The translations under genes and the position numbers were made by a program. Shown in pieces: positions 1 through 41,996 of a stretch of 46,435 nucleotides of DNA (positions are counted from its first letter, which is position 1; every line of letters starts with the position of its first letter). The DNA lies in assembly GCA_038233495.1 (NCBI GenBank), contig JBBSLW010000001.1, forward strand, positions 1 to 46,435, read 5' to 3'. The notes below the pieces were generated by a model. It had not been told where the DNA came from and did no database searches. It was given only the letters and a program-made list of their open reading frames with translations. This DNA is from Chthoniobacterales bacterium (lineage in GTDB: Bacteria > Verrucomicrobiota > Verrucomicrobiia > Chthoniobacterales > UBA10450).

Positions 1-1127
1 GCGAAGGCCTCGTTCCAGCGCCGTTCCCGAAAATAGACGACAGCGGTCCAGAAAGAGTCGCGCTGGGCGATCTGCTGCGGAGTCGCCTTCTCGGTCAGTG
101 CGAGCAATTCGTAAACTTCGAGTCGCTGATGCGCTTCAACGCTGCGCAGAAAATCCAGCGGGCGCGCCACGATCGCCTTGCCGGCGGCGCTGAATGCGCG
201 CGGGTCGAGCAGAATCTGCGAACCGTAGGTGCGGTTGGCAAGGGCGAGACGGCGCGCCACTTCGAGCGGTTCACCGGCCACCACGATCTCTTTGCCGCGG
301 GCGTCGTCCCGCATTGTCGCGACCACCCTCCCGGAGCTGATCCCCATCCGCAGGTCGATCTTACCTAACGAATCCGGCTGACCCGCGGCCTGGCCGCGAA
401 AAACTTCCCGGAACGCGAGCGCCGCCCGGGCCGCGTCCGTCGCATGCACGGCGCTCTCGTTAGGGAAACCAAAGAGGACACGGATCCCCTCCCCGTCGGC
501 CGCGTGCAGGTAACCGCCTTCCTCGAGAAACCGTCCACTCGCGCATTCGATGAATTCGCGGGTCAACTTCGCGCAGTCAGCCGGCGAAAGTTCATCGATC
601 AAGTCGGCTTCATTCGCGATCTCGCAAAAAACGAAACTGGCTTCGCGCGCCAGCGGCTGGGCGAGATTGAGCGTGCCGTTTTCCGTCAGGCGATCGAGAC
701 CGGATTGCGCCAGTCGACCGCCAAAGAGGCGCGCGGTCGCGCGGCGCTGCCGGCTTCCCTGGGTCGCAGTCATGGCGATGGCGAGGAGCGCGGCGGTCGC
801 GACGGCGAGCACCGCGGGCAGCGGAGCGAAGCTGATCCCGGCCAGGCGCAGGACCCAAGCGGCGCCGAAGAGTTCCGCCAGGAGGAGGGCGAGCAGCCCG
901 GCCCGGTGGACCGCGCCGGTGACCTGGAGGACGGTCCAGGCGGTGCCAAATCCGAGGAGAAGAACGAGCAGGAAGTTTACGAAGGAAACGGGCTCGTTAG
1001 GCGAAGCGCCCAGCATTTTCGCGAATGCGAGCGAGGGACGCGCGAGCAGCCCGTTCAACTGCAGGGCGAGGGCCAGCCCGCTCGCGACCGCCCCGATCCA
1101 GAGTGTGCCGAGAAGTTCCCGCTTCAT
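1..1127 (-). CDS. membrane-anchored class III adenylate/guanylate cyclase-like protein (3' end runs off the window)
   Basis: Absent from the ORF track because there is no stop in the window. My minus-strand translation from the ATG (complement of 1125-1127) gives MKRELLGTLWIGAVASGLALAL... with about 3 hydrophobic helices. Cyclase-homology motifs follow: FVFCEIAN, GEGIRVLFGFPNE, LRMGISSGRVV, VAGEPLEVARRLA, EVYELLAL. The start overlaps the stop of the upstream ClpX-like gene (ATGA). Confidence 0.6.
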   Translation of the reverse strand, partial: MKRELLGTLWIGAVASGLALALQLNGLLARPSLAFAKMLGASPNEPVSFVNFLLVLLLGFGTAWTVLQVTGAVHRAGLLALLLAELFGAAWVLRLAGISFAPLPAVLAVATAALLAIAMTATQGSRQRRATARLFGGRLAQSGLDRLTENGTLNLAQPLAREASFVFCEIANEADLIDELSPADCAKLTREFIECASGRFLEEGGYLHAADGEGIRVLFGFPNESAVHATDAARAALAFREVFRGQAAGQPDSLGKIDLRMGISSGRVVATMRDDARGKEIVVAGEPLEVARRLALANRTYGSQILLDPRAFSAAGKAIVARPLDFLRSVEAHQRLEVYELLALTEKATPQQIAQRDSFWTAVVYFRERRWNEAF

Positions 1128-2713
1128 TCCGCCGGGCGTTCGCCGCCCGGTCCGTAAGATTTCAGCACCAGTTCGCTCAAAAACTTATCTGGCGCCTCGA
1201 CCGCTCCCGCATCCAGCACAAACTGTTGCCGGCCGGTATTTTTTTTGATCAGGCTGAGCCCGAACTGGAAGTCCTTGAAGAGGTGCGCGCAGAGATCCGG
1301 CATCTTCATCCGCTCCGTTTCGGCGCGCGTGGTCAATCGCTCGAGCGCGGAATCGTCAAACTTCAGCTCGACTCCATGTTCGTGGGAGAAGCGATCGGCA
1401 AACATCCGCGCCTCGTTGCGCAGCGTTTCCTTTTCGTTCTGCTCGCTTTCCGCCATCAGGCGTTCCAGCACCTTCTTCGGTTCGCGGACCAGTTCTTCGG
1501 TCACGCGCAATTGCGAAAGGCCGGAGCCCGCGAGGTAGTATTTGTAATCGCGGAAAAGTTTTTCCCAGACGGTGAGGAGCCCGCGCGCGCCGGTCTTTTC
1601 AAGCGCGGCCGCGGTTGCGATGAGGAGGAGCGCTTCGTCCTCGAAACTGACCTCGATCCCGTAGGCGCGGAAGGCGCGCTCGTACTGGCGCAGGATGCTG
1701 CCCTCGGAGAATTTCATGATTTTGTAGAGATCATCCGCGGTCAGCTCCTCGCAGACGACGCGCACCGGCAGGCGGCCGATGAACTCCGGCTCGAAACCGT
1801 ACTCGACGAAATCCTGCGTCCCGACGTGCTGGAAGACTTCGTTATCGAGGACCTTCACCGGCTCGGCTTTGAACCCGATCTGGCCCTGGGCGAGCCGCTT
1901 CGAGACCTGCGTCTTCAGCCGCTCGAAAGCGCCGCTCACGACGAACAAGATGTGGCGGGTGCTGATCGTTTCGCGTTTCGCTTTCCCGCGTTTCTGGAAT
2001 TCAAACGCCGCCTGGAGCTGCCCCTGCAGATCGTTCGCGCTCCGCAGCGGCACCTCGGTTTCCTCCATTAACTTGAGGAGCGTGGTCTGCACGCCGCGAC
2101 CGCTGACATCGCGGCCGGTCATGTTGGAAGAGCCCGCCAGCTTGTCGACTTCGTCGATGTAAATGATCCCGAACTGCGCGAGGCCGACGTCGCCATCGGC
2201 TTTCTGGACCAACTCCCTAACGAGATCCTCGACGTCGCCACCGACGTAGCCGGTCTCGCTGAACTTGGTCGCGTCGGCCTTGACGAAGGGCACCTTGATC
2301 AGCTCCGCGATGTGTTTGATCAGGTAGGTTTTTCCGACCCCGGTCGGGCCGACGAGGATGACGTTCTGTTTCGCGTACTCGGTTTCCTCGGCCCGGACCG
2401 CGTCTTCACTCTCGAGCTGGCGGATGTAATTAACGTGGTTGTAGTGATCGCAGACCGCGATCGAGAGGACCTTCTTCGCTTCGTCCTGCTTGATCACGAA
2501 GCGGTCGAGATGCGCCTTGATATCGCGCGGCAGAAAATCGAAAACGAACTCGCCGCCGCTCGGCCGCGGCGGTTTCTCGTCATCGCCAGCCTCGGCCCGC
2601 TCCGGCTGGGCAAAGGAAGCAAAGGAGACTTTCTCGCCGAAGTTCGATTTCATGAATTCGGAGAGCTTGGATTGCAATTCTTCAGGCGTAGGAAATGGCG
2701 GATTTTGATTCAT
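1124..2713 (-). CDS. ClpX-family AAA+ unfoldase paralogue (no zinc-finger cysteines, C-terminal extension)
   Basis: 529-aa ORF. Walker A is VGPTGVGKT, the pore loop is ETGYVGGDVED, and an IGF-type loop is GQIGFKAEP. It also has the ClpX-like DRFVIKQDEAKKVLSIAV. The N-terminal ~65 aa contain no Cys. About 100 extra C-terminal residues relative to typical ClpX. Confidence 0.8.
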   Translation of the reverse strand: MNQNPPFPTPEELQSKLSEFMKSNFGEKVSFASFAQPERAEAGDDEKPPRPSGGEFVFDFLPRDIKAHLDRFVIKQDEAKKVLSIAVCDHYNHVNYIRQLESEDAVRAEETEYAKQNVILVGPTGVGKTYLIKHIAELIKVPFVKADATKFSETGYVGGDVEDLVRELVQKADGDVGLAQFGIIYIDEVDKLAGSSNMTGRDVSGRGVQTTLLKLMEETEVPLRSANDLQGQLQAAFEFQKRGKAKRETISTRHILFVVSGAFERLKTQVSKRLAQGQIGFKAEPVKVLDNEVFQHVGTQDFVEYGFEPEFIGRLPVRVVCEELTADDLYKIMKFSEGSILRQYERAFRAYGIEVSFEDEALLLIATAAALEKTGARGLLTVWEKLFRDYKYYLAGSGLSQLRVTEELVREPKKVLERLMAESEQNEKETLRNEARMFADRFSHEHGVELKFDDSALERLTTRAETERMKMPDLCAHLFKDFQFGLSLIKKNTGRQQFVLDAGAVEAPDKFLSELVLKSYGPGGERPAE

Positions 2714-5960: not shown

Positions 5961-7532
5961 TTACTCGCACTCGCAGACGACGCGGAAGCCGAGATCGTTG
6001 CAGGTGTAATTCGGAACGTTTGAGCCCCGGGTAGTCGCCCGAAGGCTGTTGAAACGCGATTTCCAGCTTCCGCCCCGGTAAACTCGCTTGACCCCGCTGG
6101 CCGGCCCACGCGGATTTACCTTCGGGGTTCCGCGATAATTTTCGATAAAATCGAGGCACCACTCCCAGACGTTCCCGGCCATGTCTTCGATCCCGAAGGG
6201 GCTCGCACCCAGCGGGAAAGCTCCGACCGGCGAGCTTTCCGCGTAGCCGTCGTCGATGGTCGAATCGCTCCAGGCGAACGCGGTGTTTTTATCGGCAAAA
6301 TTCGCCAGGTCCCCGCGCCCTTCCTTGTCGCCCCAGGGATATTTGCGCTGGTCCTCGCCGCGCGCGGCGTATTCCCACTCTGCCTCGGTCGGCAGCCGAT
6401 AGCGCCGCCGTTCCCGCCCGCTCAGCCATTGGCAGAACTTGATCGCTTCCGCGCTGCTCACGTAGACGACCGGATGCCGGTCGCCCGCGCCCGGGGTGCG
6501 TTTGCGCGCGTGGCTCGGGTCAAACATCTCATACTGCGCGTTGGTGATCGGATGGCGGGAGAGATAATAACAGCCAAGCGTGATCTGCGTGATCGGCTTT
6601 TCGTTAGGCGGGGCATCGTTCGCCTCGCTCCCCATTTTGAAGATGCCGGAGGGCACGAGCATCATCTCGGCCCCGATGTTGCTGGTGAAATTCTGGAAGC
6701 GCGCCTTGTCCGCCGCCGGGTCGATCGTCGGGACCGGAGCAACTGCGCCATTCCGGACCGGGACGGCGACTTTCGGGGCTGCGACCACCACCGGTTGCGG
6801 GGGCGCCGCCTGCTCTTCGATTTCTTCCAGGTAAAGGTCGACCATATCTTCGGCGTCGCCCGGCTCGATCCCGAGGTTTTCCGCCATGTTCACGAAGGCG
6901 TCGCGCTGGTCGTCGGTCATGTCGTCGCTGTCCAGACCGCTCAGGCGCAACATGCGCATGAAATCTTCGCCGGGATCGAGCGCGCCTTTTTTGTCCGAAG
7001 CGTCGTTCTCTTTCGCGGGCGTGACTCGGACTCCGCCGCAGGCGCTCAGCTCGGCCTCGATTCGTTCACGCATCCGCTCGTCGCTCAGGCCGTGTTGCCG
7101 GCCGAACTCAAGCAAGGTTTCTTCTTCCTGCGGCGAAAGCGTTTTGTCGTTGAGCGCGAAGGTGACGTACTTGTTGAATTCTGCGATCGCGCGTTCTTCC
7201 GCCTGCGCGGCCAGCTCGTCGTCCAGTTTTTGGCGACGTTCCGGGTCGAGCAGCTCGACCCGGGCCTCGGTCAGGAAGCGCGAAGATTCTTCCAGCCCGG
7301 AGCGGAGGAGCTGGGCGAGCGGGTTGCTCGGCTGATTCTTGAGCGGCAGTTTTTTCTGCCACCAGGTGAGGAGATCGCGAAAACGCTCCTCGATTAGTTC
7401 GTTAGTCGGCTTGGTCTGTGGGTCGAGACAAAGCCGCTCGTAAAGATCGGGCGAGTTGTATCGACTCCAGCCATCCCACTTGCGCGGGTCATCGGGCAAA
7501 GGGACCGGGAAACTGACCGCCGGTTTGAGCAT
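5961..7532 (-). CDS. J-like domain / helical repeats / Pro-Ala linker / FGE-sulfatase (SUMF1-like) domain protein
   Basis: 523 aa. The N-terminus DLYERLCLDPQTKPTNELIEERFRDLLTWWQKK is shaped like a J-domain but has no HPD. The C-terminal ~240 aa carry FGE-family motifs (RHPVVYVSSAEAIKFCQWLS, YRLPTEAEWEYAARG, GNVWEWC, RVYRGGSW). The start lies 1 nt after the Hsp70 stop. Confidence 0.75.
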   Translation of the reverse strand: MLKPAVSFPVPLPDDPRKWDGWSRYNSPDLYERLCLDPQTKPTNELIEERFRDLLTWWQKKLPLKNQPSNPLAQLLRSGLEESSRFLTEARVELLDPERRQKLDDELAAQAEERAIAEFNKYVTFALNDKTLSPQEEETLLEFGRQHGLSDERMRERIEAELSACGGVRVTPAKENDASDKKGALDPGEDFMRMLRLSGLDSDDMTDDQRDAFVNMAENLGIEPGDAEDMVDLYLEEIEEQAAPPQPVVVAAPKVAVPVRNGAVAPVPTIDPAADKARFQNFTSNIGAEMMLVPSGIFKMGSEANDAPPNEKPITQITLGCYYLSRHPITNAQYEMFDPSHARKRTPGAGDRHPVVYVSSAEAIKFCQWLSGRERRRYRLPTEAEWEYAARGEDQRKYPWGDKEGRGDLANFADKNTAFAWSDSTIDDGYAESSPVGAFPLGASPFGIEDMAGNVWEWCLDFIENYRGTPKVNPRGPASGVKRVYRGGSWKSRFNSLRATTRGSNVPNYTCNDLGFRVVCECE

Positions 7533-7533
7533 C

Positions 7534-9096
7534 TCAGACGACGCACAGTTGTCCCAGGGCCGTCGTCGCCCGATCCAGCTCCGCCGGAGTCAGGCCGGTC
7601 TTTCGTTCGATCGAGACTGAGGCGCTGTTGCCGCAGGCTTCGACCGCCACTTCCAACACTTGGTTGGCGTTATATTCGTAGGTCAGCTCCACCGGCGATC
7701 CTTTGGGAAGGAACGGCGGCAGCTCAACATCGCAAATTCCCAGCGGCGTGCATTCCGCGGGCAGCGTGCTTTCGCCTTCCACGATCCGGACAATTGCGCG
7801 CTGCATGTTGGCCGTCGCGGTGCCGAAGGAATTTTTCGCGACCGCCGGCATGGCGGTCATCTTCTTGATCATCGGGAAGACGTATTCCTCGAGGTGCGCT
7901 TCGTCCCAGAGAACGACGCCGAGGGTGTGCGAGGTGATGTTGCGCACTTGGATGAGGCCGCCTTCGCGGGAGGAAAATTGCTGGCGGGTCTCGGCCGGGA
8001 GCATTTTCTCGCCGGTCGTTTCTTCCTCGCCGAGGAGCGAGAGAACCGCCTGGATGGCAGCGCCGACCGCGACCGCTTCGTCCGGGTTAACGTCCTCGGC
8101 CAACGGAACGGAGGTAAGTTCGCCGATCATGGCGCGCACCATCGGCATCCGGGTCATGCCGCCGACGAGCAGAATCTTGTCCACTTTCGACCATTCCATC
8201 TTGGCTTCGCGCATCACGATTTCGCAGATCGCCTTGCACTTCTCCACGAGGTGCTTGGTCATCTTCTCGAAGTCATCGCGAGTCAGCTCGATCTTGACGC
8301 TTTTGCCGTTGTGGCTGTGCACGATCGTGGTCCGATCGCGGCTCGAAAGCTGGATTTTCGCGGCCAACGCCCGGCTCTGCAGGTCCTGGTAACTTTGCAG
8401 GTCGAGCAGAGGATTCTCGCCATGGGCGCGATCGAATTCCTCCGCCACGTGATTGACCAGGATGTCGTCCCAGTCCTTGCCGCCGAGGCGATGGTCGCCG
8501 TTCGTCGCCACCATCTCGAGGCGATGGCCTTCAATCCCCATGAGTGTGACGTCAAAGGTGCCGCCGCCAAGATCGAAGACGAAAACGGTCTGGTCGTCGT
8601 CCAGCTTGTCAAGGCCGTAGGCGAGCGCGGCTGCGGTTGGTTCGTTGATAATCTGGAGCACGTTCAGGCCCGCGAGACGTCCCGCTGTGATTGTCGCGGT
8701 CCGCTCGGGATCGTTGAAGTAAGCCGGCACCGTGATCACCGCATCGGTCACCGGCACCTTGAGATATTTCTCCGCGTCCGACTTGAGTTTCTTCAAGATG
8801 AGGGCGGAGAGTTCCTCGGCCGAGTATTTCGTGCTGTTGAACTCGCGGTTGAATTGTTCCTTCGACTTGCCGATTTCGCGCTTCACGAAGTCGACGATTT
8901 TCTCCGGCTCGGCCACAGTGTTGTTCTTCGCGATCGTGCCGACAATCGCGTTGTTGCCATCGAAGAGAATCACTGAAGGGGTGATCCGCTCGCTCTCCGC
9001 GTTTGGGATGATTTGTGGTTTTCCGTAGGCGTCGATGTGGGCGACGGCGGAAAATGTGGTGCCGAGATCGATTCCGACTGCTTTGCGATTGCTCAT
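7534..9096 (-). CDS. atypical Hsp70-family chaperone lacking the C-terminal helical lid
   Basis: 520 aa with GIDLGTTFSAVA, VITVPAYFNDPER, VFDLGGGTFDVT and LVGGMTRMP motifs. A beta-sandwich substrate-binding-like region follows, and the protein ends about 100 aa short of canonical DnaK. Confidence 0.88.
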   Translation of the reverse strand: MSNRKAVGIDLGTTFSAVAHIDAYGKPQIIPNAESERITPSVILFDGNNAIVGTIAKNNTVAEPEKIVDFVKREIGKSKEQFNREFNSTKYSAEELSALILKKLKSDAEKYLKVPVTDAVITVPAYFNDPERTATITAGRLAGLNVLQIINEPTAAALAYGLDKLDDDQTVFVFDLGGGTFDVTLMGIEGHRLEMVATNGDHRLGGKDWDDILVNHVAEEFDRAHGENPLLDLQSYQDLQSRALAAKIQLSSRDRTTIVHSHNGKSVKIELTRDDFEKMTKHLVEKCKAICEIVMREAKMEWSKVDKILLVGGMTRMPMVRAMIGELTSVPLAEDVNPDEAVAVGAAIQAVLSLLGEEETTGEKMLPAETRQQFSSREGGLIQVRNITSHTLGVVLWDEAHLEEYVFPMIKKMTAMPAVAKNSFGTATANMQRAIVRIVEGESTLPAECTPLGICDVELPPFLPKGSPVELTYEYNANQVLEVAVEACGNSASVSIERKTGLTPAELDRATTALGQLCVV

Positions 9097-9235
9097 GTGA
9101 GTAAGAGGTTTCCTTTTATTCCCTGTCTCTGGACTGCGTCCCTCTAAATGCAGTTTCCATGCCTCCGCCGGCTTAAATTCGAGGGAATCTTTTTCCCCTC
9201 CCTCGCCGGGGCGGGATTCGCCCTAACGACAGCCT

Positions 9236-9904
9236 CTAGCCGAAGCGCTTCGCGATCACTTCCTCCGGGCGCAGGACGCGGCCGTGCCAGGTGAATCCGC
9301 ACTTCAGGCGTTTCACGATCTTGCCGTCGTCTTCCGCACAATCGGTCGGCTCCACGCTGATCACGCGATGGAGAGTGCGATCGATGGTTTCCTTCGCTTC
9401 CAGTTCGCTGACCTCGAACCGGTGCAGGATCTCGAGCAGGAAATGAACGGCGTTATCGAGATTGGCGCGGGACTGGCTGTCGGCCGCCTTGCCTCTCTTC
9501 GTCTCCGCCGTTTCGAGCTGGCGGGCGATCGCGCTCAGGTCGTCGAACAGAACAAGCAGGTCGCGGATGAACGGTTTTTGGAGGGATTCGCGCACAAAAT
9601 TATCGCGATAGCTGAGCAACTCCTCGTGCAGCGTATCGAAGAGCTTTTGATTCACGCTCTCGCTCTCCCGCATCGCGTTGAGTTGCTCCTCGATTTTTTG
9701 GAAATGGAGCTGCTCGAATTTCCCGAGGAACGATTCCTCGAGCGCCTCGATTCGCTGGCCGAGCGAATGGACCGCGCTGATCAGGATCGAAATGCCGGCC
9801 GCATCCGCCAGGCCGGCCTTGAGCGCGGCCGGGGAAGCCGCCTGGGCACTCAGCTCCTGCATTACGGCGGCGAAATCGGATTCGATGGCGGTCAGTTCGC
9901 TCAT
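9236..9904 (-). CDS. GrpE-like nucleotide exchange factor
   Basis: 222 aa. A long N-terminal helix is followed by LHEELLSYRDNF, FIRDLLVLFDDL, ILHRFEVSELEA and a C-terminal beta motif (GKIVKRLKCGFTWHGRVLRPEEV), which resembles GrpE topology. Confidence 0.65.
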   Translation of the reverse strand: MSELTAIESDFAAVMQELSAQAASPAALKAGLADAAGISILISAVHSLGQRIEALEESFLGKFEQLHFQKIEEQLNAMRESESVNQKLFDTLHEELLSYRDNFVRESLQKPFIRDLLVLFDDLSAIARQLETAETKRGKAADSQSRANLDNAVHFLLEILHRFEVSELEAKETIDRTLHRVISVEPTDCAEDDGKIVKRLKCGFTWHGRVLRPEEVIAKRFG

Positions 9905-9913
9905 TGCTTCAAA

Positions 9914-11437
9914 TTAACGCCGGCCAAAAAACCGCACGATCGCGTCGACCAGCCCGGGAACGTCGTGCCGGGTCGCTTCCACCGCGATCGTTAGGCCGCG
10001 ATCCCGTGCAGTCTGCGCGGTGATCGGCCCGATGCTGGCGACCTGCATCCCCTCCGGCCACGACAGGCCGAGCGCGAGGAAACTTTCTACTGTCGATGAA
10101 CTGGTAAAAGTGATCATATCTGCGCCTTCGGCCGCCAGTCGTGTCCTCGCCTCTGTCCGGTCGCTTGTTTCCGCGACCGTCCGGTAGGCAAGGGCAACAT
10201 CGACAATGGCTCCCAAGGCTCCGAGCTCCTTCGGTAGCAGGTCCCGCGCCTCTTCCGCCCGCGCGATCAAAATCCGCAGATTTTCGATGTCTCCCTCTTT
10301 CTTGAATTCCTTCACCACCGCCTCGGCTACGAACACCTCCGGCTGCAGGTCGACCTTAAGATGAAACTCCCGCACCCGCTGCGCGGTCGCCGGTCCGATC
10401 GCCGCGATTCGCGCCCCGCCGATATCACGCGCGTCGCCATAGAGTTTGTAGAACATCTCGAAAAACGCGGTCACGCCATTCGGACTGGTGAAGACGATCC
10501 AGTCATAGCCATGGGCGTCCTGCACCAGCTCGGCAAAAGCGCGCAGATCGCTCGGCGGCTCGATCCGGATGGTCGGCAACTCGATCACCTCAGCCCCGAA
10601 GTCGCGCAGCCGTTCGCTCAAGGCGCCGGCCTGTTTTCGCGTCCGCGTGACCACGATCCGTTTCCCGGCCAGCGGACGCTTCTTCTGCCAGTCGAGTTCC
10701 TTGCCTAACGATACCACCTCGCCGAAGATCGCGACCGCCGGAGGCGCGAAATTCTGCTCCGCCACCTGCTGCGCGATCGTCGCCAGGGTGTCCCGCACCA
10801 CCTCCTGGCGCCCGGTCGTTCCCCAGCGCACGAGCGCGACCGGCAGATCCGCGCGCACCCCGCGCGCCATCATTTCCCCGGCGATCGTCTCGATCCGCTC
10901 CACGCCCATCAGCATGACCTGCGTCCCGCCGAGCTTGGCCAGGGCATCGAAATCGATCGAGCTCTCCGTTTTCTCGGGATCCTCGTGCCCGGTGAAAAAT
11001 GTGACGTGCGACGTCATCCCGCGATGCGTCACCGGAATCCCGGCATACGCGGGCGCGGCGATCGCCGAGGTGACGCCCGGCACGACTTCGAAGCCGAGCG
11101 CAGCGGCGACCAGCGCCTGCGCTTCCTCGCCGCCACGGCCGAAGAGGAAGGGATCGCCGCCTTTTAGCCTAACGACCTGCTTGCCCTCGCCTGTTTTCTC
11201 GACCAGGAGCGCGTTGATCTCATCCTGCTTGAGGGTGTGCGCGCCGGCTTTTTTCCCGGCATAAATGATCTCGGCCGATTCCGGCGCCCACTGCAGCATT
11301 TCGGGATTGCAGAGATAATCGTAAACCACCACCTCGGCCCGCTCGATCAGTTGCTTCGCGCGCAAGGTGACGAGCCCGAGATCGCCCGGACCCGCCCCGA
11401 CCAGGTAGCAACGTCCGATTTTTTTCTTATCCGCCAT
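9914..11437 (-). CDS. cobA-hemD: uroporphyrinogen-III C-methyltransferase / uroporphyrinogen-III synthase fusion
   Basis: 507 aa. The N-terminal half has the SUMT signature (CYLVGAGPGDLGLVTLRAKQLIERAEVVVYD, RLKGGDPFLFGRGGEE). The C-terminal half is HemD-like (GKRIVVTRTRKQAGALSERL). It overlaps the hemC end by 11 nt. Confidence 0.85.
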   Translation of the reverse strand: MADKKKIGRCYLVGAGPGDLGLVTLRAKQLIERAEVVVYDYLCNPEMLQWAPESAEIIYAGKKAGAHTLKQDEINALLVEKTGEGKQVVRLKGGDPFLFGRGGEEAQALVAAALGFEVVPGVTSAIAAPAYAGIPVTHRGMTSHVTFFTGHEDPEKTESSIDFDALAKLGGTQVMLMGVERIETIAGEMMARGVRADLPVALVRWGTTGRQEVVRDTLATIAQQVAEQNFAPPAVAIFGEVVSLGKELDWQKKRPLAGKRIVVTRTRKQAGALSERLRDFGAEVIELPTIRIEPPSDLRAFAELVQDAHGYDWIVFTSPNGVTAFFEMFYKLYGDARDIGGARIAAIGPATAQRVREFHLKVDLQPEVFVAEAVVKEFKKEGDIENLRILIARAEEARDLLPKELGALGAIVDVALAYRTVAETSDRTEARTRLAAEGADMITFTSSSTVESFLALGLSWPEGMQVASIGPITAQTARDRGLTIAVEATRHDVPGLVDAIVRFFGRR

Positions 11438-12335
11438 AAAGTTGTTCCATCAGTTTGGTTGCGATCGCTTCGGGATCGTCCGGCGAACCCGCCGCCCTTC
11501 CCGTTCGCGGCGCCTCCGTCTCCGCCTCGAAAACCTGCGCCTGTATCCGCAGCGCGCCCTCCACGAGCCGGGCCTGAACGCCGACCGGCGAATCGCAATC
11601 GCCATCCAAGAGTCGCAGAAATTCGCGCTCCGCGCGCAGGCAAAGATGCGTCGCGCGATCGTCCACCGCGTCGATTAATTCCCGCACCCGCTCGTCGTCC
11701 CGCCGCACCTGCAGCGCGATCACGCCCTGGCCGCCGGCCGGGAGAAAATCCTCCGCGGCCAGAACCTCGCCTTCGACTTCAAGCCCGAGGCGTTCCACGC
11801 CGGCCCGTGCCAAAATGATTCCGCTCCAGTCTCCATTCTCGCGCAGCTTGCGCAGCCGGGTCGGCACGTTGCCACGCAGCTCGGCGACCTTCAGGTCGGG
11901 CCTTTTCCAAAGCAGCTGTCGCTCTCGCCGGATGCTGCCGGTGCCGATCACCCCTCCGCTCGGGATTGTCGTTAGGCCACCGTCGCTTCTGGTGATGAGC
12001 AGATCTTCCGTGCCGGCGCGCGGGAGAGTCGCGCGCAACTCCAGCTCCTCCTGGCGTTCGCTCGGGAGATCTTTCGCGCTATGCACCGCGACGTCGATTC
12101 GCCTAACGAGAAGTTCTTTTTCGATCTCCCGGGTGAACATTCCCTTCCGGCCCGCCTTCCGATCCACGATCGGCGCTTCCGCCCGGGTCCCTTCGTCGCC
12201 GCTCGTCCGGATGATTTCGATCATCACCTCGATCTCCGGCCAGGCCGCCCGCAGCGCCTGCTCGACCAGCCGCGCCTGCGCCCGCGCGAGATCGCTCCCG
12301 CGCGATCCGAGAATGATCCTCTTCGGCGTGCCCAC
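11427..12335 (-). CDS. hemC: hydroxymethylbilane synthase (porphobilinogen deaminase)
   Basis: 302 aa with RIILGSRGSDLARAQ, IIRTSGD, IDVAVHSAKDLP, RGNVPTRLRKL and a late cysteine in the C-terminal region (GDCDSPVG). GTG start abutting the hemA stop. Confidence 0.9.
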   Translation of the reverse strand: MGTPKRIILGSRGSDLARAQARLVEQALRAAWPEIEVMIEIIRTSGDEGTRAEAPIVDRKAGRKGMFTREIEKELLVRRIDVAVHSAKDLPSERQEELELRATLPRAGTEDLLITRSDGGLTTIPSGGVIGTGSIRRERQLLWKRPDLKVAELRGNVPTRLRKLRENGDWSGIILARAGVERLGLEVEGEVLAAEDFLPAGGQGVIALQVRRDDERVRELIDAVDDRATHLCLRAEREFLRLLDGDCDSPVGVQARLVEGALRIQAQVFEAETEAPRTGRAAGSPDDPEAIATKLMEQLYGG

Positions 12336-13385
12336 TCAGCTTTCCGAGGTGCGGAGCGAAGGTTCGCCGATCGTTCGTTCCCGCGCCGCGACGAACCAGC
12401 CGCTGAAATCGCCGACATGCCCCGCGATGATTTCCTCGCCGGCCGCGATCTGCTCGCGGCGCTGGGCGAGCGATTGCTGCGCGATCGATTGCAGGGAATC
12501 GATGTCGTAAAGAAAGACGCCTTCCATCTCGTTCACGTCCGGCGCGACGTCGCGCGGGACGGCGATGTCGATGATAAAAAGCGGGCGATCGAGCCGGTCG
12601 CGCAGGAGCGGCGCGAGATTGCTCTGGGTCACGATCGGGCTCGTCGCCGCGGTCGAGGAAATCAAGATATCGACTTCGCGGCAGTGCGTTTCCCATTCCT
12701 CCATCGGCACGGCCGAGCCCGAGATCAGATTGGCGAGAGCCTGGGCGCGTTCGACCGATCGGTTCGCCACCCGGATGTCGCGCACCCCGCGTTTCACGAG
12801 CGCGCGCGCCGTGCGTTCGCTTGCTTCGCCCGCGCCGAGGAGCAGCACTTTGCGTTTCTCGAAATGGCCGAAAATTTTCGCTGCCAGATCGACCGCAACC
12901 GAGCCGACCGAGACCGCCCCGCGCGTGATATCGGTCCGGGTGCGAACCTGCTTCGCAACCCGGAAGGCGCGCTGGAAGAGCCGGTGCAGGAAAGGGCCGG
13001 CCGCGCCGCTTTCGCGCGCGGCGGCGTAGGCTTTCTTGGCTTGCCCAAGGATTTCGGTTTCGCCGATCACCATGGAATCGAGCCCGGAGGCGACGCGGAA
13101 AAGATGCTGCACGCAATGGAGCGCCTCGTGCCGGTAAAACGCGTCCACTTCTTCGCCCAACGGAGTCGTGTTCGCCGCGAGCAGGCAGTGCGCAATCCGC
13201 TCAGTCGGGATCGGGTGCTCGGCCGCGGCATAGACCTCGACGCGATTACAAGTCGTGAGCAGGAGCACTTCCGTGCAGCCGAGTTCTTCGCGCAGCCTGC
13301 GATCGACCGCAGCGTGCCCGGCGAAACGCTCGCGCAGCTCGACGTCCGCGGTGTGATGGCTGAGGCCGACGCAGAAAAGATTCAT
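12336..13385 (-). CDS. hemA: glutamyl-tRNA reductase
   Basis: True start taken as MNLFCVGLSHHTADVELRERF (ATG is the complement of 13383-13385). Motifs TCNRVEVY, GETEILGQ and a Rossmann LLLGAGEASE. The upstream 140 aa of the 489-aa track ORF lie antisense/overlapping the ccsA-like gene. About 349 aa, which is shortish. Confidence 0.88.
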   Translation of the reverse strand: MNLFCVGLSHHTADVELRERFAGHAAVDRRLREELGCTEVLLLTTCNRVEVYAAAEHPIPTERIAHCLLAANTTPLGEEVDAFYRHEALHCVQHLFRVASGLDSMVIGETEILGQAKKAYAAARESGAAGPFLHRLFQRAFRVAKQVRTRTDITRGAVSVGSVAVDLAAKIFGHFEKRKVLLLGAGEASERTARALVKRGVRDIRVANRSVERAQALANLISGSAVPMEEWETHCREVDILISSTAATSPIVTQSNLAPLLRDRLDRPLFIIDIAVPRDVAPDVNEMEGVFLYDIDSLQSIAQQSLAQRREQIAAGEEIIAGHVGDFSGWFVAARERTIGEPSLRTSES

Positions 13386-14176
13386 CAGAGGGAGCGGGTC
13401 TGGGACAAAAAAGTAATGCCCCAGAGGAGCGAGAGCGCGGCGGTGAAAGCGACCACGCAAAGCGCGGCAATGGCGCGCGGCGCGGTCGTGCCGAGATGGC
13501 GCGCGAAGAGAATGGCGGCGTAGAAAAGCCACACGCCTAACGACCACGCGATCTTGACGTAGGGCAGCGGTTGGCCAGTGAAGAAGCCGGCCGCAATCCC
13601 GACCGTGAGCAACGCGAACCCGAGCCAGAGCAGCCGGGTGATGGCCGCAAAAAGATCGGTCAACGGGGGGAAATGATAAAACATCGAGTTGAGCCGGCGC
13701 CGTTTCAGCTGGCGCTCCTGGACCAGATACATCAGCCCGGCGACGCAGGCGAGGGCGAAGGCGCCGTAGGCGATGAGCGAAACTGAGGCGTGCAACTCCA
13801 GCCAAGGCGAAGGGTCGAGCTGCCGCGGGTGCCGTTGATCGATCAACGCAAGGAGCGCGAAGGTTTGCAAACCAAAGACGAGCGGCGCGGTAAAAGCGCC
13901 CATCAGCGAGAGTCGGTAAGCCGGGCCGACGAGCAGATAGATGAGCGAGACCGACCAGGCGAGGAAGATAAAAACTTCGAAGAGACTGGTCAGCGGACAG
14001 CGCCCGAGCGCCTGCCCGCGCACGGTCAGGAATGCGGTCTGCAAGACGAACCCAAGCGCGATTGCGAAGAAGTTAAAACCGGCCGGCTGATAGTTTCCCC
14101 CGCGGATCGCGACCACGGTGCGGACCATGGCCAGGAAAAAGAAAAGAGTTGAGACGAGCAGGAGCTCACGGTCCAT
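13385..14176 (-). CDS. cytochrome c assembly protein CcsA/HemX-like membrane protein
   Basis: Polytopic membrane protein starting MDRELLLVSTLFFFLAMV... (ATG at 14176) and sitting directly upstream of hemA, as hemX does in hemAXCD-type operons. TGATG overlap with hemA. Confidence 0.65.
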   Translation of the reverse strand: MDRELLLVSTLFFFLAMVRTVVAIRGGNYQPAGFNFFAIALGFVLQTAFLTVRGQALGRCPLTSLFEVFIFLAWSVSLIYLLVGPAYRLSLMGAFTAPLVFGLQTFALLALIDQRHPRQLDPSPWLELHASVSLIAYGAFALACVAGLMYLVQERQLKRRRLNSMFYHFPPLTDLFAAITRLLWLGFALLTVGIAAGFFTGQPLPYVKIAWSLGVWLFYAAILFARHLGTTAPRAIAALCVVAFTAALSLLWGITFLSQTRSL

Positions 14177-36081: not shown

Positions 36082-39000
36082 TTAGACCTTGGTGTGTTCG
36101 GGGGACTGCGTGAACTGGAGAAGCGCACTCTGCAAGCGCGGAAATTTCTCCCGAATGTCATCGAGCAAAGGCATAGCTCCGGACAGGTCACCGGACTGGC
36201 CGGCTTTCTCCAGCGCCCGCAATGGCAACGTCAGGACTTCGACGCCGATGGACATACTGGAGCCCACTATCTTATGAGCCAGGTTGGCCACCTCCGGGGC
36301 TGACCTCGTTAGGATCGCTTCTTTCAAGCCGTCGAGCATGACGATGGTTTGCGCCAGGTAAATCCCGACGAAATGCTCCATTCGCTCAGGATCGTTATCC
36401 GTGATATCCCTGAGCTGTTCGAAGTCCACCAGCACTTCTTCCGGACAGTCACTGACGGGCGGTGGAGAGACGGGTGCAGGGTCAGAGACCTCGACCGCGC
36501 TGGATTGGACTTTATCGTAGCGATTCAAAGCCACCTCAAGTTCGTGACTCCGCACTGGCTTGCTCAGATAGTCGTTCATTCCCGCCGTCAGGCATTTTTC
36601 GCGGTCTCCGGCCATCGCGTTGGCCGTCATGGCAATGATATGGACTGGCTTTTTCCAATCGAAGCCTCCGGCGCGTTTCTGCTCCATCTCACGGATGCGG
36701 CCGGTCGTCTCATAGCCGTCGAGAAGTGGCATTTGGCAATCCATCAAGATGATGTCGTAAGGGTTGCGCTCAAAGGCATCAAAGACTTCCGTTCCATCAG
36801 CAACCGCATCGGCGCTATAACCAAGTTTCCGGAGCAAGCCCAAGGCGACCCGCTGGTTCACATCGTTATCTTCCGCCAGCAGGATGCGCATTTTCCGATC
36901 GACGGCCGGAGAAGCGATCGGAACAGGCAAGACTCTTTTCGCTTTCTCAGCCGCGCCGACGGTTTTGGTCCCGACCACTTTGGCGATCGAATCAAAGAGA
37001 AGCGATTGCTTGATTGGTTTGATCAGGCAGTCGTCGATGCCGGTAGCTCGCAGTTTTTTCGCGTCCAAGCGTGCACCAACCGAAGAGAGAAGGACAAGGC
37101 GCACCCCGGCCAGATCCTTTTGGGACTTTATGGCTCGTGCCAGAGTGACCCCATCGGTGCCCGGCATTTGCATATCCAGCAGAACCACATCGTAAGGGTC
37201 ATCCGCGGCCTCGGCGGTGCGCAATTCCTCCAGAGCACTCTCCGCGTCCCGCGCCGCTCGGGAGCGCATCTTCCAGGCGCGCGTCTGGAGCCGCAGGATC
37301 TCGCAGTTCGTTTCGTTGTCGTCTACGATCAGAACGTGCAGATTGGCCAACTCCTCGGCGATCACGAGGTCTTCGGGGAACTCACCGGCTGATTTCATTA
37401 GACGGACCGTAAACCAGAAGAGCGATCCTTTACCGGGGATGCTATCAACGCCGACCGTGCCGTGCATGTGTGCGATGAGTTGTTTCGAGATAACCAGTCC
37501 CAGCCCCGTGCCGCCATACTTGCGCGTCGTCGAGCCATCCGCCTGGCTAAAAGGTTGAAAAAGCCTTTGCCGCGCCTCCGGCTTGATCCCGATCCCGGTG
37601 TCCTGCACCTCAAAGCGCAGAAACGCCTCTCCCTCACTTTCCCCTTCCAGAGATATCTTCACTACCACTTCGCCGTGTTCGGTAAACTTGATCGCGTTGC
37701 CCACGAAATTGAGGAGCACCTGCCGCACCCGGCCCGGGTCGCCGCGGAGGTGGACTGGCACGTCATGCTCGATGAGGCAGGCTAACTCCAGGCCCTTGCC
37801 CTCCGCCTTATGCGCCAGCAACTCCAATCCACCGTGGACGGCCTCATGGAGGTCAAAATCAATCTCCTCAAAAGATAGCTTGCCCGCTTCGATTTTGGAG
37901 AAATCGAGAATGTCATCGATCACCTTCAGCAATGACTCCGCGCTGCTCTGGATCGTGCTGGCAAAAGACCGTTGCTCAGGATTCAGCGCGGTGTCGAGTA
38001 ACAGGCCAGTCATGCCCATGACTCCATTCATCGGCGTCCGTATCTCGTGACTCATGTTGGCGAGAAACTCACTTTTCGCGATGGTCGCGGCTTCCGCCGC
38101 GCTCTTGGCCAGGAGCAGATCGTTCTCCTTTCGCCTCAGCTCTGTCACATCCTGTGAGGTCCCGTACAACCGAGTCACCCGTCCGGTTTCATCGGTAAGA
38201 ATATTTTCCCGATTGTGTAGAATCCGTTCCTGCCCATCCGGCCAGATGATGCGGCTATCGCTTCCGGCCAATCTATCGTCCGCCAGCCCCACGTCGACAC
38301 CATCCACCGTCTCCCGCCGACTGGGATGCACACAGGAGAGGTAGTGTTCGTAACTTGGCTCGAAGGCGCCCGGCTCACAACCGAAGAGCCGATATTGCTC
38401 ATCCGACCAAAGGAGTCTTCTCTCCTTAACATCCCATTCCCAGCTTCCTACTCGCGCCACTTCCTGCGCTTCCGCCAGGCGCGCTTCACTCGTCGTGAGC
38501 CTTTCCTCCGCCCGCTTGCGCTCGATCGCGCCCGCAATTTGATCCGCCACCGAAGAAAGAAATTCCTGGTCGCGCAGACTGTAGGCGTTGGCCCGCTCAT
38601 AATGTTGCACCACCAGCACACCGATGGTGCGAGCGGGCGTCCGCAGCGGCACACCGAGCCAGGAGGGAGAGTCCGACCCGATTAACTTCAGTTCGCCGCT
38701 CGCATGCATCCGCTCCGAGACCTCTTTGGTTAACAAGAGCGGCTGGCCGGTCCGCTGGACGTAGCTCGTGCAGCTTCGCCCATCCTTGCCCGGCTGCGGC
38801 GGCGGAACCGGATCGACCTTATCCACCCAAAACTCAAAGCGGAGCAGATCGTCCGCCGGATCGTGCAAGGCGACGAAGCAATTCTCGGCCGAGAGGAGTT
38901 TGCCAATTGAGCGCCAGGCGAGATCAAGTAACTCATCCAAATTGCTCGTTGTGCTCACGCCTTGGAGAATGTCGGAGGTGACCTGCCGTTCCGCGTCCGC

Positions 39001-40563
39001 CCGGATTTGCTCGGTGGTATCGGCAAAGACCACGACCGCACCAATGATTTCACCTTCCTCATCGCGCGTGGGTGTGATGGTGTATCGCACTGGGAAACTC
39101 GTTCCATCCTTGCGCCAGAAAACGTCACTCTCGACGCGCCGCGACGCACCCGTCCTTAAGGTCACGTCAATCGGGTTCTCGTTTTCCGGATAGGGCGAAC
39201 CATCCGCACGACTGTGATGCATGACCGCGTGCGCCGATTGCCCGTGCAATTCCGAGCTCTCCCAGCCTAACAAGCGGGTGGCGGCGGGGTTCGCAAAGAG
39301 GATCTGGCCCTCACAATTGATCCACTGAATTCCTTCCCCGACCGCGTTCAAGACCAGCTCATTGTCGCGCTGCAATTTATAGATTTGCTGTTTTGCCTGC
39401 TCGATGTTTTCCACCTGCCCGCGGATCGCCTTGGCAATCAGCCACGCCAGCCAGAAGAAGACGATCGCGAAACAGACGCCGGTGATCATCAGCCGCCGCC
39501 AGTTCGCCGTCAGCTCCTGTTCGATCGCTGCCGTCAGCGCCTCGGATTGCTCCCGGGCCGACTGCAGATAGGCAGCCAACGCGACATCGATTTTAACGGC
39601 GAGGACCGATCGCTCGAGATTCAGCTTCTCCCGTTCGCTCCGCAGGCGCAGCACCTCCCGTCGGAAATCGTAGAGCCCGCCTTTGCCCGGCTCGATGGTC
39701 TGCTGCGTCCCATCATTTCGGTGACTCTCACCGAATAGGCTCGCCGATAATTCGGTCATCTCCTCTGCCGCCGCCGCTTCCTCGCCCGGCCGCGATTCCA
39801 CAAAGACCTCCAGGTCGCGGCGCAGCCTCTCCAAGGCCGGCTTCAGCTCGTTGTCCTTCAGGTTCGGGAGAATATCCGCCTGCTCGTCACCACCCAGCCG
39901 CTCCACGAGGCTTTCCACTTCCGCCAGTTCCCGCTTCAAATCGCCCGCATGCAGAATCTGCCGTTTCCCTTCTCCGGTCAGGATCTCTCGCGCCAACTCA
40001 TCGGCTTCCGCGCCGGTTGCTTCCTGCCAGTGCTTCATCTGGATGGCTTGCTTTAATCGCGCGCTGCCCTCCAGCGTCTCAACCGTCCCGCGCAGCGTCG
40101 TGAGCCGCTTTCGCACCTCGCCCATGGTTCTTTCTTCGCCCAGGTCGCGCGACACCGCCTCCTGCCGTTCGCGCCAGGTCAACGACCGCCGTTTGATGCC
40201 TACCAATCCGTCGCTCAAGGAATCGAACTGGCGGAGCGCCTCCGATAGGGAGGACCGTTCCCAGGGCCGATTCAGCCGGTCAATCATCGTCGCGAGTTCT
40301 TCGGACGCCCGGGTATTCCTCAGCGGCACGCCCTCCGCCAGGATGCCGATGATCTCATTCCGCGCGGCGCTCGACTGGCGCAAAATATCCTCCGAGATCT
40401 GGTAAAGCCGCTTCTGCTCCGCCTGCAATTTGCCCCGCTCCGCGCGCGTCGACCGCATCTGGTAATCGACCAGACCGACCAGGACCAGGATCGTCGTTAG
40501 GCCGAGTGCCGCCAGCAGCCGCACCATCCAGGAAATCCGGCCCGTTTCCCTCGCGCTAATCAT
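36082..40563 (-). CDS. hybrid sensor histidine kinase (TM - coiled-coil sensor region - TM - PAS - GAF - PAS - HisKA - HATPase - REC - REC - HPt)
   Basis: 1493 aa. The H-box is FLANMSHEIRTPMNG and the N/G boxes are VGNAIKFT and DTGIGI...GGTGLGL. It has two receivers (LIVDDNETN...LLDMQMPGTDG; ILLAEDNDVN...LMDCQMPLLDG) and a C-terminal HPt (LAHKIVGSSMSIG). Confidence 0.9.
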   Translation of the reverse strand: MISARETGRISWMVRLLAALGLTTILVLVGLVDYQMRSTRAERGKLQAEQKRLYQISEDILRQSSAARNEIIGILAEGVPLRNTRASEELATMIDRLNRPWERSSLSEALRQFDSLSDGLVGIKRRSLTWRERQEAVSRDLGEERTMGEVRKRLTTLRGTVETLEGSARLKQAIQMKHWQEATGAEADELAREILTGEGKRQILHAGDLKRELAEVESLVERLGGDEQADILPNLKDNELKPALERLRRDLEVFVESRPGEEAAAAEEMTELSASLFGESHRNDGTQQTIEPGKGGLYDFRREVLRLRSEREKLNLERSVLAVKIDVALAAYLQSAREQSEALTAAIEQELTANWRRLMITGVCFAIVFFWLAWLIAKAIRGQVENIEQAKQQIYKLQRDNELVLNAVGEGIQWINCEGQILFANPAATRLLGWESSELHGQSAHAVMHHSRADGSPYPENENPIDVTLRTGASRRVESDVFWRKDGTSFPVRYTITPTRDEEGEIIGAVVVFADTTEQIRADAERQVTSDILQGVSTTSNLDELLDLAWRSIGKLLSAENCFVALHDPADDLLRFEFWVDKVDPVPPPQPGKDGRSCTSYVQRTGQPLLLTKEVSERMHASGELKLIGSDSPSWLGVPLRTPARTIGVLVVQHYERANAYSLRDQEFLSSVADQIAGAIERKRAEERLTTSEARLAEAQEVARVGSWEWDVKERRLLWSDEQYRLFGCEPGAFEPSYEHYLSCVHPSRRETVDGVDVGLADDRLAGSDSRIIWPDGQERILHNRENILTDETGRVTRLYGTSQDVTELRRKENDLLLAKSAAEAATIAKSEFLANMSHEIRTPMNGVMGMTGLLLDTALNPEQRSFASTIQSSAESLLKVIDDILDFSKIEAGKLSFEEIDFDLHEAVHGGLELLAHKAEGKGLELACLIEHDVPVHLRGDPGRVRQVLLNFVGNAIKFTEHGEVVVKISLEGESEGEAFLRFEVQDTGIGIKPEARQRLFQPFSQADGSTTRKYGGTGLGLVISKQLIAHMHGTVGVDSIPGKGSLFWFTVRLMKSAGEFPEDLVIAEELANLHVLIVDDNETNCEILRLQTRAWKMRSRAARDAESALEELRTAEAADDPYDVVLLDMQMPGTDGVTLARAIKSQKDLAGVRLVLLSSVGARLDAKKLRATGIDDCLIKPIKQSLLFDSIAKVVGTKTVGAAEKAKRVLPVPIASPAVDRKMRILLAEDNDVNQRVALGLLRKLGYSADAVADGTEVFDAFERNPYDIILMDCQMPLLDGYETTGRIREMEQKRAGGFDWKKPVHIIAMTANAMAGDREKCLTAGMNDYLSKPVRSHELEVALNRYDKVQSSAVEVSDPAPVSPPPVSDCPEEVLVDFEQLRDITDNDPERMEHFVGIYLAQTIVMLDGLKEAILTRSAPEVANLAHKIVGSSMSIGVEVLTLPLRALEKAGQSGDLSGAMPLLDDIREKFPRLQSALLQFTQSPEHTKV

Positions 40564-41812: not shown

Positions 41813-41996
41813 CGGATTTTCGGCAAGGGCACTGCGATTTTGAAGACGGCATCCCCTGCCTGACCACCGGCTGCAAAAAAGATCCGAAGAGACAGCCCCT
41901 GCGGAATACGCTCTCCAACCAAGCACAAAGCATTCCTTCGGCGTCGCTACGCGTTGGTGGGGCCATGCCCTTGAGCGCGTTACCTAGGGCATGTGA

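Follow-up and report, generated by a model that had tools for sequence, protein, structure and literature searches.

The window analysed here is a stretch of 46,435 nucleotides (nt) from a Chthoniobacterales bacterium (Verrucomicrobiota; contig JBBSLW010000001.1 of GenBank assembly GCA_038233495.1). Its minus strand carries a group of three co-directional genes that encode a GrpE-like nucleotide-exchange factor, an Hsp70 that ends before the helical lid, and a protein that joins a J-like N-terminal domain to a C-terminal domain of the formylglycine-generating enzyme (FGE) type. We consider it likely that this triad serves as a chaperone machine in its own right, built around a specialised Hsp70 and kept apart from the housekeeping DnaK system. 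In the order of transcription, the three genes are the following, with lengths in amino acids (aa):

9236..9904, minus strand: GrpE-like nucleotide-exchange factor, 222 aa (Pfam GrpE)
7534..9096, minus strand: lidless Hsp70, 520 aa (Pfam HSP70 and alignment to DnaK)
5961..7532, minus strand: J-like::FGE-like adaptor protein, 523 aa (domain searches and hydropathy)

An earlier note on this DNA had reported three co-directional genes separated by 139 nt and 1 nt, and a check of the open reading frames bears out both its coordinates and its gaps: 139 nt (9097-9235) lie between the GrpE-like gene and the Hsp70 gene, and a single nucleotide (7533) lies between the latter and the adaptor gene. No second Hsp70, GrpE or FGE gene is found within the window, and a consensus scan of the triad gave no convincing sigma-70 promoter or terminator.

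Lidless Hsp70 and its J-like partner

The Hsp70 matches Pfam PF00012 (E 4e-125) over profile positions 1-510 of 599, so that the part of the profile corresponding to the lid is missing. The ATPase motifs GIDLGTT, K72, NEPTAA, DLGGGTFD, VGGMTRMP and NPDEAVAVGAA are present. In an alignment to Escherichia coli DnaK the beta-sandwich keeps the DnaK-like pattern, and the protein breaks off in helix A, near DnaK residue 520, with a single short helix at its end. It is composed of a nucleotide-binding domain (NBD, residues about 1-352), an insertion with a modified linker (about 353-388), the beta-sandwich (about 389-500) and the one short C-terminal helix; the insertion, of about 22 residues, precedes the linker, which reads LIQVRN where DnaK has DVLLLD. 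The description in the earlier note of a 520-aa Hsp70 with ATPase motifs and beta-sandwich, stopping before the lid, therefore holds. Related gene groups in other genomes (cassettes, described below) encode Hsp70s that all end at a common point, and the absence of the lid is thus a family trait.

The window Hsp70 falls far below the cut-offs of the DnaK equivalog models (NF001413, 424 bits against 648; TIGR02350, 417 against 822) and of the HscA model (323 bits against 708). Its identity to E. coli DnaK is 35% overall and 44% in the NBD (290 bits), compared with 31% to HscA and 33% to HscC (219 bits). The Hsp70s of the cassettes share 48-66% identity with it across their full length. On these sequence comparisons it is assigned to a distinct lineage, of neither the DnaK, the HscA nor the HscC type.

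The lineage also differs at the surface that receives J domains. R167 of DnaK forms a hydrogen bond with Asp35 of the His-Pro-Asp (HPD) motif of the J domain and clamps D481 (Mayer 2021, PMC8215388). The window Hsp70 has Q148 in place of R167 and N478 in place of D481, while Q378 and P419 are kept.

8653..8655, minus strand: codon of Q148, the equivalent of DnaK R167 (alignment to E. coli DnaK)

All triads of the FGE type have Gln at this position, as do 73 of 74 Chthoniobacterales orthologues. The residue is Ala, Gly or Ser in the other cassettes with a recognisable J-like partner, and Arg or Lys in six of seven paralogues fused to a vWA domain (Hsp70::vWA).

The adaptor protein is composed of the following parts:

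7203..7481, minus strand: J-like domain, residues about 18-110 (profile against PDB sequences, hhalign, AlphaFold2 model with Foldseek)
7317..7325, minus strand: N70-P71-L72 (NPL) at the canonical HPD position (hhalign alignment)
6819..7202, minus strand: two helical units of the pattern L(S/T)xxEExxLxxxGxxLG, residues about 111-172 and 187-238 (AlphaFold2 helices)
6672..6818, minus strand: Pro/Ala/Val-rich linker, residues 239-287 (39% conserved)
5964..6671, minus strand: FGE-sulfatase (C-type-lectin-like) domain, residues 288-523 (Pfam and PDB matches)

The J-domain shape that the earlier note had ascribed to the N-terminus stands as far as the fold is concerned. Among PDB sequences, a profile of the N-terminal-module family finds over 30 J-domain chains, the best at E 2.4e-4. 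Comparison by hhalign with an alignment of canonical J domains, among them that of E. coli DnaJ, gave a probability of 94.6% (E 6.5e-8). An AlphaFold2 model of residues 1-245, with a predicted local distance difference test score (pLDDT) of 78, had J domains as its sole good Foldseek matches, among them 2och (probability 0.99, TM-score 0.70) and the J domain of DnaK-bound DnaJ (5nro_B, TM-score 0.76). Residues about 18-110 are thus predicted to adopt a four-helix J-domain fold of a non-canonical kind. The canonical features did not hold: residues 1-285 have no match in Pfam, with none to DnaJ (PF00226) at E<=0.1, and NPL takes the place of HPD. Helix II carries in addition an insertion of 11 residues, WWQKKLPLKNQ. 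Both the NPL tripeptide and this insertion are invariant among orthologues, and family-wide the motif at the HPD position is (N/H/Q)-P-(L/V/M/P/K/R), whose third residue is never acidic. Across 120 orthologues the columns of the J-like domain average 85% identity. The contact between Asp35 and R167 is consequently lost on both partners, and the interface may be read as rewired and probably orthogonal to that of DnaK and DnaJ.

The two helical units behind the J-like domain are separated by a disordered stretch, the second (residues 187-238) being 88% conserved. They are weakly alike (hhalign E 0.017) and are not J-like themselves. Derivation of the second unit from the second J-like domain of distant homologues was considered and found unsupported (hhalign E 0.14), and a TerB-like nature of the units, indicated by one weak match (E 0.03) with no match in Pfam, is not claimed. 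The linker that follows occupies the place taken by three or four membrane helices in distant homologues. No membrane helix is predicted in the window adaptor, whose maximum 19-residue hydropathy is 1.12.

A housekeeping role, in which the Hsp70 and the adjacent GrpE would represent the general DnaK system in a divergent form, is highly improbable. It is favoured by the intact ATPase, the beta-sandwich and the adjacent GrpE, by the core, syntenic and highly conserved nature of the locus, by the lack of a second Hsp70 in the window, and by the label 'molecular chaperone DnaK' that the JGI pipelines give to orthologues. However, the DnaK equivalog cut-offs are missed widely, and the NCBI name of orthologues is merely 'Hsp70 family protein'. 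The Hsp70 has no lid, an altered linker and Gln at the R167 position, and its partner lacks not only HPD but also the glycine/phenylalanine-rich region, the zinc finger and the C-terminal domains of DnaJ. Distant cassettes exist with two such Hsp70s in tandem, and in a survey of 130 genomes a derived DnaK paralogue was never found without a bona fide DnaK (PMC13580251). The proposal of the earlier note that this is a dedicated rather than a housekeeping set is supported by the failure of the Hsp70 to reach the DnaK and HscA model cut-offs and by the co-conserved gene order.

The FGE-sulfatase domain assigned by the earlier note to the C-terminus is confirmed by a match to PF03781 (E 9e-51, 173 bits against a cut-off of 23, residues 288-519), and orthologues of the adaptor are publicly annotated as 'formylglycine-generating enzyme family protein'. 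The closest solved relatives of the domain are SUMF1 (E 1e-29) and bacterial FGEs (E 3e-26), and SUMF2 (1y4j) is also matched. Mutation of Ser333, Cys336, His337, Tyr340 or Cys341, which are catalytic and copper-site residues, changes FGE activity (PMC4505483). Four of these five are lost in the adaptor: Cys336 is replaced by Ser492 and His337 by Arg493, Tyr340 and Cys341 fall within a 3-residue deletion, and only Ser333 is kept. The domain is therefore judged from its residues to be inactive as an FGE and is regarded as a putative binding module, which suits the ligand- or client-binding role that the earlier note had proposed. It resembles pFGE/SUMF2, an FGE paralogue that has kept the fold and lost the catalytic cysteines (1y4j); however, SUMF2 is a stand-alone protein of the endoplasmic reticulum, whereas the window domain forms the C-terminal end of a J-like protein in the cytoplasm. 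Its column identity is 80%, and it is not hypervariable.

The adaptor ends in VVCECE, a Cys-Glu-Cys arrangement (window 5961-5972) of which C520 and C522 are present in at least 90% of close orthologues. This ending is lost in more distant members of the FGE type and could be a small metal or redox site.

The resemblance to FGEs raises an alternative that concerns sulfatases. PVC bacteria are rich in sulfatases, and a dead FGE domain might, like pFGE/SUMF2, recognise the CxPxR motif of unfolded sulfatases and pass them to the lidless Hsp70, by which they would be kept unfolded for modification and export. The domain is nearest to true FGEs, with SUMF2 among its matches, only the catalytic loop residues are missing from it, and FGE itself acts on unfolded CxPxR peptides (PMC4505483). 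On the other hand, no sulfatase or FGE gene is linked to the triad at any locus examined, and in distant cassettes unrelated domains replace the FGE domain. We therefore hold sulfatase precursors to be an unlikely clientele.

Conservation, promoter and gene neighbourhood

The N-terminal module of the adaptor is rare: 175 matches at E<=1e-3, mostly fragments, were found among 1.84 billion representative proteins, and a profile search of a 5.8-billion-protein set for the distant N-terminal modules matched one fragment. In a collection of species genomes, a profile search with an alignment of 5 sequences as the query found relatives encoded in 213 genomes. The best 80 of these, on which the synteny counts are based, are all from Chthoniobacterales or unclassified Verrucomicrobiota. 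Among the loci long enough to be evaluated, GrpE is present in 70 of 70 and Hsp70 in 79 of 79. The earlier note had named a lack of co-conservation as evidence that would speak against its proposal; the complete triad is present in all 70 evaluable Chthoniobacterales loci. The order in long Chthoniobacterales loci is invariant: hemA-hemC-cobA/hemD-GrpE-Hsp70-J-like::FGE, followed by a convergent secDF. Among the eight genes at the locus the Hsp70 has the highest median identity to the window (89%), compared with 84% for cobA/hemD, 78% for hemA, 76% for SecDF, 71% for J-like::FGE and 60% for GrpE; by this measure the Hsp70 is under strong purifying selection. In Chthoniobacterales the triad is thus core, syntenic, single-copy, strongly conserved and soluble.

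A metagenome scan anchored on the Hsp70 extends these observations. In verrucomicrobial-type loci that could be evaluated, J-like::FGE lies downstream of the Hsp70 in 20 of 22 and GrpE lies upstream of it in 20 of 23. The unit is also found in other surroundings, between an epimerase gene and GYF/IspD/Mla genes in locus L082 and between ruvC-ruvA and a gene for an extracytoplasmic function (ECF) sigma factor in L174. Since the same gene order occurs in at least three verrucomicrobial neighbourhoods unrelated to each other, as well as in the distant cassettes, the linkage of the triad goes beyond inherited gene order.

The GrpE-like protein matches Pfam GrpE (PF01025, E 3.6e-14, 53.2 bits against a cut-off of 25.8) over residues 52-217, in agreement with the exchange factor named in the earlier note, while it lies far under every NCBIfam GrpE equivalog cut-off (best 37.9 bits against 137-266). 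It shares 27% identity with E. coli GrpE (E 2e-6) and 33-36% with the GrpEs of distant cassettes (E 1e-23 to 1e-28). The GrpEs of the cassettes are nearer to each other than to that of E. coli, which argues for a cassette-specific exchange factor.

The 139-nt spacer between the GrpE-like gene and the Hsp70 gene contains a single conserved block, GGCA(T/C)G-N5-(C/T)TGCA, in which GG and GC dinucleotides occur at the consensus spacing of sigma-54 promoters.

9149..9163, minus strand: sigma-54-type -24/-12 element GGCATGGAAACTGCA, ending 53 nt upstream of the Hsp70 ATG

Of 69 orthologous spacers, 66 contain the element, in most cases at a distance of 49-56 nt upstream of the Hsp70 ATG. It is also found in 13 related metagenome loci and is missing from more divergent triads. 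A single match to the sigma-54 pattern in the window is not significant alone (chance expectation 0.28), and the assignment is therefore based on the phylogenetic footprint. The Hsp70 and adaptor genes are probably an activator-dependent transcription unit. No enhancer-binding protein with a GAFTGA motif is encoded in the window or its flanks.

The GrpE-like gene itself begins 9 nt past the stop codon of cobA/hemD and is probably co-transcribed with the heme genes upstream.

9914..13805, minus strand: hemA, hemC and a cobA/hemD fusion (TP_methylase + HEM4, 507 aa) (translations, Pfam of the orthologues in locus L001, synteny)

In all long Chthoniobacterales loci these genes precede the triad with gaps of 7-40 nt. 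The linkage persists in the divergent relatives L094, L099, L104 and L113, and in L089 the heme genes are rearranged and still adjacent. It is absent from L082, L100, L174 and all distant cassettes. The linkage may represent a functional tie or plain inherited gene order. That the module controls tetrapyrrole synthesis by acting on an enzyme of the hemA-hemC-cobA/hemD pathway would agree with the constancy of this neighbourhood, including its survival in the divergent relatives and in the rearranged locus. The exceptions named above speak against it, as does the fact that the Hsp70 and the adaptor have their own promoter, and linkage inside one order is compatible with gene order inherited without any functional tie; we regard such control as quite unlikely.

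Distant homologues of the adaptor share the J-like module at 20-30% identity. In these, a second DnaJ domain, detectable by Pfam and likewise without HPD, is followed by three or four membrane helices, and the C-terminal domain is FGE, PEGA, RodZ_C, LamG, Ig-like or SH3_3. Wherever the context is readable (L083, L086, L088, L143 and L176), the adaptor gene directly follows genes for GrpE and for an Hsp70 of 511-533 aa. The same order therefore recurs with other last domains, and the fixed core consists of GrpE, a lidless Hsp70 and a J-like protein whose last domain can be exchanged. Genes for an Hsp70::vWA fusion and a rhomboid protein often lie upstream, and genes for TPR, TPR-CHAT or TPR-zincin proteins lie downstream. 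Some distant cassettes hold two short Hsp70s side by side. The neighbours of the L176 cassette carry type-9 secretion sorting domains and the locus is therefore probably Bacteroidota-like.

Several features of these and other short Hsp70s may be recorded. The L176 adaptor is the smallest found, with 333 aa comprising a J-like domain, four membrane helices and SH3_3. The Hsp70::vWA fusions have about 680-760 aa, with vWA replacing the lid (L083 5743-7779, L086 3548-5638, L125, and L143 7722-9989); their genes stand just upstream of GrpE, often after a rhomboid protease gene. Neighbours of the conflict or signalling type include a TPR-CHAT protein of 871 aa, a NERD-NACHT protein of 1119 aa and a TPR-zincin protein (L176 10545-14234; L083 17123-20482; L143 14028-14870). 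Lidless Hsp70s of about 525 aa that form a clade apart (L134-L159, for example L137 7974-9551 and L150 7929-9551) have Asp at the R167 position and no GrpE nearby, and some of them precede proteins with faint J-like matches. In L118 (7380-11784), L127 (2372-6321) and L128, GrpE is followed by two tandem short Hsp70 paralogues and by no recognisable J-like gene.

Such neighbours recall the NTPase-based conflict and signalling systems of Kaur et al. 2020 (PMC7159879), and the statement in the earlier note that FGE-like domains occur in them is correct. In their vWA-MoxR systems, FGE-type ('FGS') domains serve as binding modules in effector or sensor roles, and their GAP1-N2 GTPase systems resemble the present family in pairing an extra Hsp70 with a GrpE of its own and in fusing the J-type protein to a domain that varies and is often exposed at the surface. 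By analogy, the triad might be a defence or transmembrane-signalling system in which the FGE-type domain senses or neutralises an invader and Hsp70/GrpE sets the threshold. The distant cassettes, whose third protein spans the membrane, adjoin genes for Hsp70::vWA, rhomboid, TPR-CHAT, TPR-zincin and NERD-NACHT proteins and so share vWA, CHAT and TPR neighbours with the published systems. A weak PADLOC match, to PDC-S48 (E 1.6e-5), covers 64 of 411 positions. This match and those to BrxA (E 1e-3) and PDC-M61B (E 2e-3) are short and span small parts of the models, and membership in a PADLOC defence system was rejected.

The Chthoniobacterales triad, however, does not behave like these systems, which are patchy, variable and found mainly in Actinobacteria, Firmicutes and Cyanobacteria. 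Its locus is universal, single-copy and syntenic among genes for heme synthesis, SecDF, SMC and tRNA synthetases, with an invariant order and a soluble adaptor. The triad has no MoxR, vWA, GTPase or reverse transcriptase gene and no mobile element next to it, and neither the window nor any of the 80 orthologous loci encodes a MoxR and vWA pair or a GAP1-type GTPase; the vWA domain is confined to the Hsp70::vWA fusions of distant cassettes. Searches of plasmids and phages gave no match to the J-like module, and the FGE domain is conserved. For a core, syntenic and conserved locus of this kind, lacking hypervariability, a defence role in Chthoniobacterales is improbable; it suits the distant membrane-bound cassettes better than the window triad.

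A probable dedicated chaperone module and the known Hsp70 systems

The interpretation that we favour, a dedicated Hsp70 module insulated from the housekeeping DnaK system, may be set out as follows. The 523-aa protein would act as the targeting subunit, its non-catalytic FGE-type domain holding a specific ligand or client and its J-like domain docking on the lidless Hsp70. With a working ATPase and a peptide-binding beta-sandwich, and with no lid, the Hsp70 would bind and release clients quickly, and the GrpE of the cassette would reset it through nucleotide exchange. The changes on both sides of the interface, NPL for HPD on one and Gln/Asn for R167/D481 on the other, would prevent cross-talk with DnaK and DnaJ. 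In Chthoniobacterales the whole is a soluble, vertically inherited core function.

Several points weigh against this interpretation. A J-like domain that merely tethers the adaptor to the Hsp70 is an equally possible alternative to a rewired, orthogonal interface. The GrpE seems to be part of the heme transcription unit and could also be the general GrpE of the genome. The presence of a canonical dnaK elsewhere in the genome is presumed from the literature (PMC13580251). Partners are not always together, as L101 and L114 have the Hsp70 without partners, L104 has no GrpE, and L089 has the adaptor without an Hsp70 upstream. In the AlphaFold2 model of the full-length adaptor the FGE half is poor, with pLDDT <50 for residues 391-514. 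The domain content, the lost motifs, the co-conservation and the promoter footprint are established from the sequences, whereas docking, control of the ATPase, insulation from DnaK and a specific client are inferred.

Three types of prokaryotic Hsp70 have been reviewed, DnaK, HscA and HscC, of which HscA and HscC do not use GrpE (PMC8215388). DnaK, with DnaJ and GrpE, is by sequence the closest of the three, and it shares with the window system the ATPase motifs, the beta-sandwich and the pairing with GrpE. It differs in that the window Hsp70 has no lid, the linker LIQVRN and Gln/Asn for R167/D481, and in that the J partner has neither HPD nor the client-binding domains of DnaJ. HscA/HscB offers the parallel of a dedicated Hsp70 with a J-type adaptor whose second domain presents one client, IscU in the case of HscB. 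HscB keeps HPD, however, HscA is lidded and GrpE-free, and no isc, fdx or hscB gene is found near the window triad. HscC of E. coli is a specialised Hsp70 with a reduced lid, encoded beside its own non-canonical J partners DjlB and DjlC (with HPE), and has a narrow, still unknown client set, being dispensable for general folding (PMC8215388). The window Hsp70 is less similar to HscC than to DnaK, and HscC is independent of GrpE, whereas the window cassette includes one. The window partner differs from DjlB and DjlC in being soluble, in its NPL tripeptide and in its FGE-type domain, and it is not DjlC-like.

Truncated bacterial 'DnaK derivates' have been acknowledged as unexplored (Goloubinoff, De Los Rios and Rebeaud 2026, PMC13580251), and the window Hsp70 belongs to this class of paralogues with a shortened or deleted lid. 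Their review gives no definition by neighbourhood and no dedicated GrpE or J-like partner; it proposes an Hsp110-like helper function for truncated DnaK paralogues in general. Applied here, the lidless Hsp70 would attach to the NBD of canonical DnaK and there promote nucleotide exchange or boost disaggregation. Against this, the Hsp70 keeps the beta-sandwich in a DnaK-like form, and a GrpE and a J-like partner of its own accompany it in a constant gene order, none of which a mere exchange factor would need; this function is very unlikely for the triad.

The literature search found no paper describing the combination of GrpE, lidless Hsp70 and J-like::FGE. Compared with known dedicated Hsp70/co-chaperone systems, the surprising features are the HPD-less J partner, the matching change in the Hsp70, the private GrpE and the swappable output domain. 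We suggest tentatively, as a bolder reading, that the family may add a fourth class to the prokaryotic Hsp70 machines of the DnaK, HscA and HscC types. It would be defined by a lidless Hsp70, its own GrpE and an HPD-less J-like adaptor, with an interface rewired on both sides and orthogonal to DnaK/DnaJ. Through the exchangeable C-terminal domain (FGE-like, PEGA, LamG or SH3), in many lineages outside the membrane, an external event or the binding of a ligand would be linked to an ATP-driven chaperone inside the cell, and the soluble, sigma-54-controlled version would be an essential core function in Chthoniobacterales.

Because the triad is kept together across different genomic settings, it provides a concrete and testable example of the extra Hsp70 copies of bacteria. 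The locus gives a complete and conserved parts list for one Hsp70 paralogue, consisting of an exchange factor, a J partner departing from the HPD rule, a corresponding change at the residue by which an Hsp70 reads HPD, and a probable sigma-54 switch. Should the J-like domain drive the ATPase, the HPD requirement would not be universal and the pair would be a natural orthogonal Hsp70/J system, useful for specificity studies and for engineering. Should it only tether, the pair would illustrate the reuse of J folds for docking. In both cases the FGE-type domain indicates a specific client that can be discovered, in a group of very abundant soil bacteria.

Other genes of the window

The remainder of the window is ordinary core chromosome, with genes for SMC, valyl-tRNA synthetase, another class II tRNA synthetase, CstA, peptidases and a hybrid histidine kinase, and an Rfam scan of the window found no families. 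An AAA+ protein of 529 aa (AAA_2 + ClpB_D2-small; window 1124-2713, minus strand), which is not a sigma-54 activator, is encoded beyond secDF; its gene is syntenic there in closer relatives, at 84-91% identity. The hybrid histidine kinase, of 1493 aa, contains PAS, GAF, HisKA and HATPase domains and two receiver domains (window 36082-40563, minus strand), and its gene adjoins that of a periplasmic binding protein (40556-41926).

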